Shown: positions 1 to 3,000 of the stretch, in pieces
Numbering within the stretch: position 1 is the stretch's first letter
Layout: every line of letters starts with the position of its first letter
Assembly: GCA_046497485.1 (NCBI GenBank)
Contig: JAWOFP010000023.1
Location: forward strand, 1-37,929
From: Candidatus Nanohaloarchaea archaeon
Lineage (GTDB): Archaea; Nanohalarchaeota; Nanosalinia; Nanosalinales; Nanosalinaceae
Reading direction: 5' to 3'
DNA length: 37,929 nucleotides
Program-made: the position numbers

Positions 1-3000
1 GAAGGGTTCGTGGTCTAGTTGGTTATGACACCGCCTTGACATGGCGGAGATCCCCAGTTCGAATCTGGGCGAACCCATCAAATTAGTTGAACGTTTCAAA
101 ATTACCTCTTACATAATCGTAAATGTCTTGAGGCTCGAGATTATCCGATTCTAGAAAGCTAGGGGCTTCCACTACTCTGAAAATCTCTTCGAGATCTTTT
201 TCAAGCATATCATCTTTTTCTAAATGGAAAAGTACATTTGACAGGCCTATTATTTTCATTAAATCTCTCATGTCATCGGGTTTTACTAGGAGAAATTCCT
301 CACCAAGCTTTCTGTATAAGCTACCTTCTATCCATATTGCTTCATAGTGCGGGCCGTAGTCTAGCTGAGTGATAAATTCTTCTTCGTCATCAAATGTCTT
401 GATATCTCCCTGGTCAATTTCTAAATCTTCCAACTTTTTCGTCGGCAAATCATTATCTGTGATCTCTCCTGCATCGTAGATATCAGCTATTATCTCCTTT
501 ATTCCAGTAGCACCATATTTATGCGACCAATAACTTAATGATCCATCTTCATTAGTTTTTACTATTATTCCGCGCTCAGCCATATGACCTTTATTGAAAC
601 GAAGAATAATAAAATTTCATTATCGTAAGAGCGAGAAATTTGAATAAGACGTCAAAGTTGGCTATGAACAATCAAGTCTCTCTAAAGTCTTTATATTGAA
701 AGTTCTGTTTTAGATAGGTTAGTATGTCATCTTTAGTGGCAGGAAACTCTATCTGCTGGAAGGTCTATGGATAACGCCTTCTAAAGTCAATTATATTGTT
801 GAAACTGTCTAAGAAATCCTCAAATTCTTGATCTTTAATATCTACTTGGCTTCGTCCTATACGATTATAATCTTCAGAGGTTTCACATTCTATGAGTAAT
901 CCTCTAGTATAAGGATAGTAACAAGTTCCGTCAATCCAAACTGCTTCATGAAACACATAATTAATATGGTTTAAAACAAAATCTTTCAAGTTATCTGCAA
1001 TATCAGTGTTGCTAGAATCTTCTATCATCCTTTTAGGAATTTTATCTCCATCAGTTTCTATGCATGTCTCAGCATCAAAGGCAGAAATTGCAGCATGATT
1101 ATTTTTTTCATATTCGACGCTGTTATCTTCCCTTATTTCTGCTATTAGTCCTCGATCACCCATATAAAATTAGTAAAAAGAGAGATTCATAAAAGTTTTA
1201 TTTAAATCCTAGATAGAGGGAAAGTAGCTCAGGGGTTAGAGCGCTGCGCTCATAACAACTGTTTATGAGCGATGAGGAATCAGGCCTTATTCTGGAGAGG
1301 CCTTTTTTCCGATGATTAAAGACTCAGTTCCAGAAGAATTGTGAGATACGCAGAGGTCCCGGGTTCGATTCCCGGCTTTCCCATCCTTCTCATGTGAGAA
1401 GGTTGTTCAAGAAATCATTTCTGAATGAATATTTCCTAAATTATATTTCTCGAAAATAAAGAAGTTGGAGGCCTATAAGGCCTTTGATTCCGAAATACAG
1501 TTGTGGTGGCAGTAGCCTTCTGAGGCCTCTAAATAGTTATCGTTTGTGAAAACTCGGCTGCCACAGATAACGCAGATTCCCAATTTATTTTTCTGATGCA
1601 TTATTTCAACCCCTCCCAAGGATGTAATCAGTAATTGGAGATCTGACTATTTAACCAAAGTTCCAGTAAGATAAATGTATAAGGCTCCGATAGTATCGGA
1701 GGGTAACTAACCGTGCGTGAAGTAAAACACGCTACTTGAGTCCTTTCTGGCGAACCCGAATCTTTCAAACTGGACTACTTCATCAACTTCGATATCGACT
1801 GGCTCTACTAGGCCTTCAAAGTCCTCGCCATCTGGCATCCTCACAGTAACTTCTTCGGACCCTTGTGGAACCCAGTGAATGAACTCGGCATCATTCTCCA
1901 ATGCATCCTTGTGGTCTCCAGGCCTGTACTCTACTGAACCGTCCTCTACCTCGATGTTGCAAAGGCCTTTCAGCCGCATAAAACCATCTTCCAGATCGCT
2001 TTCCTCAACAAAGATCTCGACTTTACCGTCTCCAACTTCTAAATCGTATTCTCTGTGACCTCTCTCAGGGAAATCAGGATGGACAGGTATCTCAGCCTTC
2101 AAATCCGCTGGAACATCGTTAATCTCGATTTTTACAGGATCTCTAACCAGGAAGGCTCTATCACTTTCCTCGTCAATCAATCTAGTATTCTCTTTTTCCA
2201 GTCCTTCAATACTGGCTTCTACATCGTTTTCAGTTACTCCCATCTCTCTAAAGAAGTTCCTAATAGCTTCAGGCCTGAAACCTCTTCGCTTTAAGGCCCT
2301 AATTGTCGGTGCTCTAGGATCATCCCATCCATCAAGCTCTCCCTCCTCCACCATTTCTCCTAGCGTCGAGGAACTTACAGGCGCGTTAAATCCAGAGATT
2401 CTGACATTCCCCCAGTACCGGATATCAGGATAGTCCCATTCAAAGTACTCGTACACAAACTTCTGTCTCTTTGTGGAGGCTCGAAGATCCTTTCCTCTAA
2501 CAATATGAGTGGTTCCCATCAATTTATCTTCAATAGCTCCCTGGAAATCAAGTAGAGGCCACACACGGTATTTATCTCCTGTAATCGGGTGGTCAGCATC
2601 ATCAATTATTCTGAAAGCCACAAAGTCTCTGACAGCAGGATTCTTATGATCCAAATCAGTTTTAACTTTGAGAACTGCTTCTCCTTCTTCAAGGCCTCCA
2701 TTCTTCATTTTCTCCCAGAGCTCCATGTTTTTCTCAATGCTCTGGTCTCTATACTCAGAAGCTGTCCCTTCTCTTCTATGCTTTTGCATCTCTTCTTGAG
2801 AAGCTTTCGATACATAGGCCTTACCTTTCTCAATCAATTCTTCAGCATACTCAATGTATTTATCGAAGTTTTTCGAGCTGTAACGAACTTCATCCGGTTC
2901 ATAACCGAGCCATTCATAGTCCTCCTCGTACATCTGGTAGGCTTCTTTCATAGGCCTCTTGGTCACTGGATCGGTGTCGTCAAATCTTAGTATCAGTTTT

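Follow-up and report, generated by a model that had tools for sequence, protein, structure and literature searches.

tRNA-Met introns and tRNA-Trp introns of DPANN archaea carry a candidate single-motif C/D guide for their own wobble cytidine

Results

Here we examine the intron of a tRNA-Met gene in a 37,929-nt stretch of DNA (the window; contig JAWOFP010000023.1, assembly GCA_046497485.1) from a Candidatus Nanohaloarchaea archaeon, together with its relatives. Judged from sequence, we consider it somewhat probable that each such intron is a natural single-motif ("halfmer") C/D guide, which would direct 2'-O-methylation of its own C34 in cis, before splicing. The module extends well outside the Nanosalinales: among DPANN archaea, N. 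equitans included, the distinct introns that carry it number 153 for Met and 38 for Trp. Relatives are not independent, and these counts therefore overstate support.

Anatomy of the two introns

The tRNA-Met(CAU) gene lies on the forward strand at 1218-1383 (Rfam RF00005, 56.3 bits; ARAGORN with introns) and is interrupted at 37/38. We infer that it is the elongator, since an initiator-type tRNA(CAT) is encoded separately on contig C60, contig C32 has a tRNA-Ile(TAT) gene with an intron, and a search for the TiaS domain found none in this 97% complete genome; on these grounds an Ile2 identity was rejected. The 93-nt intron (1255-1347; ARAGORN and sequence reading) has the bulge-helix-bulge junctions of an archaeal tRNA intron at this site, and a splicing endonuclease gene is present in the genome; no Rfam family covers the intron itself. 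Near its 5' end, the antisense guide UUAUGAGCG (1263-1271) complements C30-A37 and the next A and is predicted to pair in cis with the exon as a hairpin of 9 bp. Counting back from the D' box, its fifth base, G1267, lies opposite the wobble base C34 (1251), the predicted methylation target. There follow box D' (AUGA, 1272-1275), a variable hairpin (1276-1311; register test and folds) based on the canonical kink-turn stem GGAA/UUCC (1276-1279 with 1307-1310) with the G-A-U bulge beside it, and box C' (AUGAUUA, 1312-1318). RUGA of box C' was no part of the Met search patterns, so that its presence in 153/153 Met introns is unforced.

Downstream of box C', a putative anti-guide (1322-1326) copies target bases and might retain the guide when the RNA is in the splicing fold; compared with its own shuffles, the segment after the box has the stronger pairing to the guide in 90/126 Met and 29/36 Trp introns, a modest effect. 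A putative 7-bp pseudoknot (1290-1335) would join the hairpin loop (1290-1296) to the tail (1329-1335): at least six complementary bases between loop and tail were counted in 6 of 17 long-hairpin introns against 0.27 expected, with the arms swapped in locus L006. The 3' strand of the bulge-helix-bulge and the 3' splice bulge occupy 1342-1347 (sequence reading and splice fold), with exon bases 32-35 pairing to 1342-1345. We also considered whether the circular intron conceals another motif, with CAGA serving as D' and GUGAG as C', and rejected this, because CCAG occurs only with its complementary loop, swapped in L006, and GUGAG is a strand of the splice motif.

The tRNA-Trp gene of the same genome (contig C14, 34355-34490) has a 62-nt intron that reads CUGGAGG-G-AUGA, a GGCC/GGCC stem and AUGAUUA, and here too the fifth base before the box faces C34. 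The sequences of both introns thus agree with the survey's finding that Met and Trp share one guide-AUGA-hairpin-AUGAUUA module with its fifth base paired to C34. Among 11 intron-bearing tRNA genes tested in this genome, these two alone carry it, both with C34. No stand-alone guide for Met C34 was evident by eye in the genome; its single SpoU protein looks TrmJ-like in its motif, judged by eye, and would then be a position 32 enzyme.

Distribution

Within the order the Met pattern matched 46 of 70 genomes, against a single control match; by their anticodon arms (read by eye), 44 of these are tRNA-Met and two are chance, and three further Nanosalinales genomes with the Met module were picked up by hand. 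Plain DNA similarity returned 30 loci, of which 28 have the module, one was cut too short to judge and one is without it; at locus L019, from the same genus and at a contig end, the intron has neither guide nor boxes. In the order, the Trp search returned 25 loci, of which 18 hold true Trp introns, every one with AUGA and RUGAUUA. In another pattern search the count was 121/251, with zero for the control; looser patterns gave mostly noise. The elongator tRNA-Met gene itself was not found in genomes G010, G017, G033 and G040.

Register, boxes and covariation

Several properties were not built into the search patterns: the N+5 spacing, the pairing of the guide with position 31, the stem register, the scarcity of second boxes, the co-occurrence with fibrillarin and the register shared with a canonical full Trp-intron guide. 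When spacing was left free, N+5 was found in 64 of 106 matches (201 genomes; by-eye tally) against 14 in the control; each of the 62 N+5 loci that were retrieved and had tRNA-like arms is a tRNA-Met intron, and the other 18 matches retrieved include no tRNA. Guide base -2 and tRNA base 31 form a Watson-Crick pair in 62/62 Met introns (G:C 37, A:U 23, U:A 2); for Trp, 18 nanohaloarchaeal introns have C:G at this place and 19 others have G:C, and two Trp introns, L216 and L237, are mismatched there. If the first RUGA is read as box C', kink-turn stem positions 1-3 are paired in 132, 134 and 125 of 139 Met introns and in 37, 37 and 32 of 38 Trp introns, through six pair types; shifted registers pair far less often. 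Tandem GA and the 3-nt-bulge register are conserved, so that boxes D/D' and C/C' appear kink-turn-capable, and, counted back from box D/D', the fifth base is the one that faces the target. Both extra boxes occur in one of 153 Met and none of 38 Trp introns; the layout of a two-motif guide with spacers of about 12 nt is not that of these introns, and the shortest of them (35-37 nt) have no space for it. The survey's reading without a second C/D pair is borne out by the near absence of further boxes, and its single D'/C' kink-turn guide aimed at its own C34 gains support, as a prediction, from spacing, position-31 covariation and stem register.

The boxes themselves are more plastic than was first thought. 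Replacement of the usual boxes by AUGA and AUGAUUA is seen in the window's introns and is typical of Nanosalinaceae (AUGA in 32/32 modules), but fails as a general rule; CUGA, once believed confined to two distant genomes, occurs in 11/12 modules outside that family. Across the 153 Met introns box D' is AUGA in 113, CUGA in 33 and UUGA in 7, with canonical CUGA and G at C'6 together in 13, and UUGA is always paired with A at C' position 6 (7/7). Against a guide reading stand the truncated Nop5 described below and D1:C'6 pairs that are not Watson-Crick in 51/153 introns (A.A 23, C.U 10, C.C 8, A.C 7, others 3). The guide-target duplex, for which about 9-12 bp is the yardstick, measures 9 bp in the window and 5-6 bp in 80/153 Met introns; counted with the spliced tRNA, it is at most 6 bp in 79/153.

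Folding predictions favour pairing in cis. In the window's unspliced precursor, C34 has a predicted pairing probability of 0.92, and it is predicted to pair with guide base -5 at a probability >0.5 in 106/131 Met and 32/36 Trp precursors. The cis hairpin and the bulge-helix-bulge are mutually exclusive, the former being predicted lower in 130/131 Met precursors, by energies that leave out kink-turns, tertiary contacts and salt.

Protein partners

L7Ae, Nop5 and fibrillarin are all encoded in the genome, as the survey had listed, but the Nop5 of Nanosalinaceae is without its N-terminal, fibrillarin-binding domain. Its open frames measure 247-284 aa in 46 of the 47 family genomes having a match, and the N-terminal domain is matched in neither the window's genome nor 18 family loci, against 12/12 sister-family loci; short frames are also seen in 2/5 module genomes of another phylum. 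A separately encoded N-terminal domain was sought in the window's genome and none was found (best E 0.14); for the ORF upstream of nop5, neither Pfam nor NCBIfam gave a match, and the sole leads, Myb-like, stayed below 0.9. The fibrillarin gene adjoins nop5, and the catalytic K-D-K-H is invariant in 14 Nanosalinaceae sequences. A conventional two-motif sRNA with a conserved guide is kept in 31/70 genomes, all Nanosalinaceae. Fibrillarin is present in 63/63 Met-module genomes and the Met module in 0/50 genomes without fibrillarin; two fibrillarin-negative genomes, G089 and G156, have module-like Trp matches.

Discussion

The events on the precursor that we infer from this anatomy, conservation and covariation would run as follows. 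Each intron supplies one box D'/C' pair in a conserved kink-turn layout and an antisense stretch of 5-10 nt. During precursor synthesis the guide would fold back onto anticodon bases 30/31-37, L7Ae would bind the kink-turn, and Nop5 with fibrillarin would load and methylate C34. The RNA would then refold, the guide passing to the anti-guide after box C' and exon bases 32-35 to the intron 3' end; the resulting bulge-helix-bulge would let the endonuclease excise the intron. In Nanosalinaceae, where Nop5 is without most of its N-terminal domain, fibrillarin would need another mode of recruitment.

Whether such a guide serves its own molecule may be argued. A second molecule might have its C34 methylated by an RNP on the circular intron after excision, or on a different precursor, possibly with two half guides per Nop5 dimer; the Haloferax volcanii Trp-intron guide is reported to act in trans in vitro, the N. 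equitans Met intron accumulates (PMC3491384), and nanohaloarchaeal guides often form 8-9 bp with the spliced tRNA, inside the in vitro range (PMC9670817). We nonetheless hold action in trans to be unlikely, while giving it real weight, since the duplex is 6 bp or less in about half (79/153) of the Met introns, the guide always lies a short loop from its own target (3-8 nt in 137/153), and it is predicted to be captured by its own exon in the precursor and partly by the anti-guide in the free intron. The mutual exclusion of the two folds, and the lower predicted energy of the cis form, would also suit a module that performs no methylation, its kink-turn binding L7Ae and its antisense blocking the splice fold, so as to time or regulate splicing or to protect the intron. 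Degenerate boxes and the truncated Nop5 of Nanosalinaceae agree with this, as do the mammalian intronic K-loop RNAs reported to suppress splicing (abstract of bioRxiv 10.64898/2026.08.03.742641). Such a role, however, would leave the spacing of antisense and box free, whereas N+5 holds in 62/62. Against it also stand the presence of the module in only two of 11 intron-bearing tRNA genes of this genome, both with C34, its co-occurrence with fibrillarin across genomes, and the fact that in archaea, as in humans, a guide makes the Cm34 of elongator tRNA-Met; we regard it as rather improbable.

A mixed history has a small chance of being right, the module being a working guide where Nop5 is full and, in Nanosalinaceae, having lost methylation and been kept for folding only. 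The short Nop5 frames and unmatched N-terminal domain of that family speak for it; against it stand the retained catalytic residues of a fibrillarin gene adjoining nop5, the conventional sRNA with its conserved guide, the strict conservation of the module in this very family, and the short Nop5 frames in another phylum. Lastly, the guide repeats bases of the splice-motif strand, both complementing 32-35, and the boxes are just 4-7 nt long, so that one might suspect coincidence, or a side effect of the symmetry of the splice motif; with the control counts given above, the covariation, nine intron-bearing tRNA genes of the same genome without the module, and 16 module-pattern matches from two other archaeal phyla (242 genomes) that include no tRNA, we judge this extremely improbable. 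Methylation in cis by a half guide is thus the reading that we prefer.

Several known systems resemble this candidate guide in part. The N. equitans elongator tRNA-Met has a 66-nt intron that gives rise to a stable, abundant C/D-like RNA, possibly a guide, whose target is listed as "no prediction" and which is treated as a single case in the available portion of the report (PMC3491384). This intron (L084) is homologous to ours, with the same tRNA, guide-box-hairpin-box order and N+5 on C34, although the legend available there assigns box C differently (PMC3491384). Relative to that account, the present data add a predicted self target, a design with one motif, a series of 153 introns for Met plus 38 for Trp, and AUGA in place of CUGA. 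The euryarchaeal pre-tRNA-Trp intron guide (Haloferax volcanii; Pyrococcus sR50) is likewise intron-encoded with C34 of its host as a target, and a canonical full Trp-intron guide, L334, shares the GGAG-NN-box register of the module. In contrast, the Haloferax/sR50 guide has two motifs in the order C, guide, D', C', guide-34, D and methylates 34 and 39, whereas the module has one motif, a guide at the intron 5' end before the box and one target, and occurs in Met and Trp; the full C-D'-C'-D arrangement, with the C34 guide next to a 3' box D, is not what these introns show. Module order would fit circular permutation of the Trp-intron guide with loss of one motif. The sR49/sR-tMet and human SNORD97/SCARNA97 RNAs have the same predicted product, Cm34 of elongator tRNA-Met, but are separate genes acting in trans, and the Met C34 guide was said never to be intronic (PMC2584109).

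The in vitro literature disagrees on one-motif guides. Methylation was strict and efficient when K-turn and K-loop guides of a single motif were combined with L7Ae (PMC9670817, PMC7229835); one-motif complexes were elsewhere non-specific (PMC1635284), and a table in PMC3001065 gives a C'/D' halfmer 0% activity. The engineered halfmer or monopartite guides MMG4 and MMG5 also have one C/D motif and one open-ended guide, but are artificial, act in trans and combine 8-11-bp duplexes, canonical boxes and full-length Nop5 (PMC9670817, PMC7229835). Substrates of 8-11 bp (PMC9670817) contrast with the predicted 5-6-bp hairpins, closed by a 3-7-nt loop, of many introns here. Our literature search, with most subscription papers outside its reach, returned no paper describing this intron module.

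The fullest version of our model is more tentative, and we put it somewhat below an even chance: a one-motif cis C/D guide of DPANN archaea that forms a 5-9-bp hairpin, has C34 methylated, refolds and allows splicing, and that may have arisen from a permuted and halved Trp-intron guide, spread to other C34 tRNAs and, in Nanosalinaceae, be served by a Nop5 without its fibrillarin-binding domain. If true, this domain loss would imply an enzyme assembly unlike any in the published accounts that we found, and it raises the separate question of how fibrillarin is recruited. Whether one-motif C/D guides exist and act in cells was stated to be open in PMC7229835; the cis guide, if true, would answer this, and more than 190 natural sequences are supplied here. 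The orphan Met-intron RNA of N. equitans would gain a target, and the rule barring the Met C34 guide from introns would be overturned. Cis guiding would have a clean case of coupling to splicing, and the persistence of these introns in reduced genomes would find a reason.

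A Predicted Half Guide Module in Two tRNA Introns

An Rfam scan of the window returned tRNA-Val (4-77), a tRNA with a long insert (1218-1383), and no other RNA family; ARAGORN identifies the second tRNA as tRNA-Met(CAT) and places a 93-nt intron in it (1255-1347). A bulge-helix-bulge can form, 1342-1345 being complementary to exon bases 32-35, and the genome holding the window (G000) has a splicing endonuclease gene. We take this tRNA as the elongator type, because G000 has separate genes for an initiator-type tRNA(CAT) and for tRNA-Ile(TAT), and a search for a TiaS domain gave no match. 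The intron carries a guide (1263-1271), a D' box AUGA (1272-1275), a kink-turn stem (1276-1279 paired with 1307-1310, plus a G-A-U bulge), and a C' box AUGAUUA (1312-1318), with C34 (1251) opposite G1267, the fifth base 5' of AUGA (N+5). The tRNA-Trp gene on contig C14 has the identical layout in a 62-nt intron. The survey's finding that both introns share guide, AUGA, hairpin, and AUGAUUA, with N+5 on C34, is seen directly in the sequence. We examined 11 tRNA genes of G000 that have introns, and an antisense copy of bases 32-35 with NUGA two bases on is confined to this pair; the genes for Leu(CAA), Ser(CGA), and Lys(CTT) are intronless.

Several features of other tRNA genes and introns were also observed. 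Met and Trp introns (retrieved loci L008, L014, L016, L028, L037, L038, L074, L085, L120, and L412) share a three-way-junction insert in which a UYGA linker precedes a GAAG...CUUC hairpin, and the intron of tRNA-Arg(TCT) (G000:C46:4164-4296) has a hairpin resembling it; a second hairpin is shared by the Ala(CGC) intron and L016, L021, and L042. Several Met/Trp genes have an apparent second intron (variable region or D/T arm), and in many the T-loop begins CUC, not UUC (L070, L073, L089, L095, L105, L156, L223, L233). In G000, tRNA-Ile(UAU) (C32:25272-25395, minus strand) has a 51-nt intron, and AUA is apparently read without agmatidine. This genome also holds a near-identical tRNA-Thr(TGT) pair (C25:10599-10688 and C28:1829-1917), an identical tRNA-Arg(GCG) pair (C23:4-75 and C46:21241-21312), and a tRNA-Arg(ACG) (C46:4299-4373) adjoining Arg(TCT).

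Tests Independent of the Search Pattern

With the guide-to-box distance left free, 106 matches were found in 89 of 201 genomes (control, 14), distributed by eye as 2, 11, 64, 8, 14, 4, and 3 at spacings 1-7. One of the 64 matches at N+5 is Nanoarchaeum equitans (L084); we retrieved the other 63, together with 17 of the 42 at different spacings. Among the loci so obtained, 62 at N+5 proved to be tRNA-Met introns, while the 18 left over are non-tRNA, one of which passed a loose D-arm test with the T arm absent. Guide base -2 and tRNA base 31 are Watson-Crick in 62/62, with three pair types, and Met and Trp guides also differ as their anticodons do. From 185 candidates, 180 Met loci were extracted, giving 153 distinct introns of 35-262 nt (a few 3' ends are imprecise); RUGA lies downstream of the box in all 153. 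When the first RUGA was chosen blind to stems, Met stem positions 1-3 paired in 132, 134, and 125 of 139 introns; none of four shifted registers gave more than 104, 61, and 67. The Trp positions paired in 37, 37, and 32 of 38, a set from which two chance loci had been removed and in which RUGA was part of the search pattern for 20 loci. A 3-bp stem occurs in 65/82 loci versus 5/27 chance loci, four true tRNAs having sat in that control.

The first D' base and sixth C' base form A-U in 82 Met introns, C-G in 13, and U-A in 7 (all 7 UUGA boxes), and are non-standard in 51 of the 153. The survey had A-U replacing C-G and CUGA confined to two distant genomes; the former holds in the window's family, Nanosalinaceae (AUGA in 32/32 modules), but not in the sister families, where CUGA stands in 11/12, mostly with AUGAUC, and the single AUGA case goes with AUGAUUA. 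The latter claim falls with the same count. On this distribution of boxes, the A-U pair is a sequence trait of the window's family. The absence of a second C/D pair, also claimed, was upheld: both extra boxes occur in 1/153 Met introns (L099), and there are introns of just 35-37 nt that have either a short hairpin or a K-loop. L099 resembles a full C-D'-C'-D guide inside a Met intron, and in L114 a C-like box stands 12 nt 5' of D'; both are possibly ancestral or intermediate states.

A strong fibrillarin match is present in 151/201 genomes, including 63/63 Met-module genomes, and the module occurs in 0/50 genomes lacking such a match. Raw Trp matches number 93/151 in fibrillarin-positive versus 6/50 in negative genomes (by-eye tally); of these six, four are chance and two module-like (G089, G156). 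Since related genomes share traits, all these counts are overstated.

Distribution

Within the order Nanosalinales, the Met pattern matches 46/70 genomes (control, 1), 44 being tRNA-Met by eye and 2 chance, and three further genomes carry the module with variant flanks. Plain similarity retrieved 30 loci, 28 with the module, one too short, and one (L019, G002:C2:1-120) whose intron lacks it. At L019, which lies at a contig end, the 5' half of a tRNA-Met runs into an intron that has neither guide nor boxes, and the start of the 3' exon is deviant; this locus is either a decayed copy or a true loss. The patterns found no elongator tRNA-Met gene in G010 (one contig, 98% complete), G017, G033, or G040, where it may be a split gene, a divergent one, or one with several interruptions.

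A species-collection scan, using the pattern without box C', listed at least 119 loci, 93 judged tRNA-Met by eye and 26 dropped as chance. Among these listed matches, the 93 bear titles of Woesearchaeota, Nanoarchaeia/Nanoarchaeota, Nanohaloarchaea, Aenigmarchaeota, Parvarchaeota, N. equitans, and other archaea. Twelve are titled Methanosarcinales (L060, L066, L079, L089, L093, L095, L100, L156, L166, L172, L175, L177) and one Colwellia (L115), yet their tRNAs are DPANN-like, so that we regard these titles as likely mislabels. The Trp pattern occurs in 121/251 genomes of the N. equitans phylum (control, 0), two of them unpublished (G316 and G317, one the source of Trp locus L234); of 30 loci retrieved there, 20 were identified by script and 3 by eye as tRNA-Trp, 23 in all, and the other 7 are chance. 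Beyond these, the Met search covered two other archaeal phyla, Halobacteriota not among them, where it matched 6/121 and 9/121 genomes, with 0/16 matches being tRNA.

Comparison with Known Guides

In the available excerpts, the N. equitans Met intron is described as a stable RNA with a possible C/D role and "no prediction" as target (PMC3491384); the L084 sequence carries the window-type module, and the module is homologous to this orphan RNA. As excerpted, the literature has the Trp C34 guide always intronic and the Met guide never (PMC2584109), and reviews give the Trp intron as the sole demonstrated case (PMC4090602, PMC7994747, PMC11408192). The portions available of PMC4644070 and PMC12558985 hold nothing on the module, and we found no published description in the literature searched, outside which most subscription papers lie. 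A canonical Trp-intron guide, found in G341, runs C, guide, D', C', guide-34, D, whereas the DPANN module runs guide-34, box, hairpin, box. Nine Nanobdellota Trp introns retain, past the C box, a short stretch that could pair with the 3' splice junction, but by eye no box stands in register with it. The box order and this retained stretch fit a circularly permuted Trp-intron guide minus one motif. In Trp introns L211-L213, L215, L217, L219, L221, L227, and L229, a GGUAU segment 3' of box C' that complements the 3' splice junction, and has no D box in register, is possibly the relic of the position-39 guide.

One-motif guides have, in the excerpts at hand, been found active but non-specific (PMC1635284), to reach 34% and 0% activity (PMC3001065), to be specific (PMC7229835, which attributes the earlier non-specificity to too long a duplex and treats it as open whether cells contain such guides), and to be strict and efficient with L7Ae (PMC9670817). 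Human tRNA-Met Cm34 is reported as guide-made and protective from cleavage (PMC6601510), and a preprint links K-loop RNAs to splicing. The module is a real, widely conserved RNA that would work like a box C/D guide; with one motif instead of two it falls outside that class, and the most fitting name for it is a natural halfmer variant of that Trp-intron guide.

Folding and Proposed Mechanism

The module probably directs Cm34 in the window's genome. Its guide lies directly behind its target, so that the exon pairs with it into a 5-11 bp hairpin, whose loop measures 3-8 nt in 137/153 Met introns. In predicted folds, which leave out kink-turns and salt, C34 pairs with guide base -5 at a probability of 0.92 in the window precursor and above 0.5 in 106/131 Met and 32/36 Trp precursors. 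This cis fold and the splice fold are mutually exclusive and are predicted to differ by <1 kcal/mol in the window. In 90/126 Met and 29/36 Trp introns the strand after C' shows better pairing to the guide than shuffled versions of that strand do, a modest sign that it may serve as an anti-guide. The same Cm34 could, less probably, be made in trans, on a second molecule; the guide duplex with spliced tRNA is ≤6 bp in 79/153 Met introns, which disfavours trans action in most lineages. From the hairpin geometry, the predicted folds, and the short spliced-tRNA duplexes we infer, with a slight leaning towards methylation in cis, an order in which the guide would form the cis hairpin with the anticodon exon, L7Ae would bind the kink-turn, Nop5-fibrillarin would load, C34 would be 2'-O-methylated, and the precursor would then refold and be spliced.

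Long nanohaloarchaeal Met introns also show a loop-tail pseudoknot complementarity (1290-1296 with 1329-1335 in the window; likewise L002-L008, L013, L120, and L418, with arms swapped in L006), and the pseudoknot loop also complements the tRNA-Trp anticodon loop.

C/D Machinery of the Family

Fibrillarin, Nop5, and L7Ae are all encoded in G000, as surveyed, but Nop5 is without its N-terminal domain. Fibrillarin residues K48, D139, K168, and H208, which we take to be catalytic, are kept in 14 family members. Nop5 has 248 aa (C62:14587-15333 region; L057:1483-2229, minus strand) and aligns to a solved Sulfolobus Nop5 only from residue 119; the missing domain is the fibrillarin recruiter, according to the available part of PMC9670817. 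Of the 47 family genomes that gave a match, 46 have open frames of 247-284 aa; those of the sister families are mostly 297-362 aa long. A profile of the N-terminal domain built from the sister families matches 12/12 of their own loci, 0/18 window-family loci, and nothing in G000. The family Nop5 retains only the last helix of that domain, conserved, and short frames also occur in 2/5 module genomes of the N. equitans phylum. Directly upstream of nop5 lies an acidic conserved ORF of ~127-200 aa (L057:2219-2602, minus strand) with two Myb-like helix-turn-helix repeats and no Pfam or NCBIfam match; in most loci of the family, though not in sister families, it adjoins nop5 or overlaps it, and its product is a candidate partner of the short Nop5.

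No rRNA motifs were found in the G000 assembly. Out of 4 raw matches there, against 1 in the control, two are convincing two-motif C/D sRNAs whose boxes are canonical; they lie on C60 (about 5983-6046, L407) and on C1, both minus strand, and the D' guide core of the C60 one is kept in 31/70 genomes, all of the window's family, often in two copies. Given these sRNAs, the C/D machinery looks to be still in use in the window's family.
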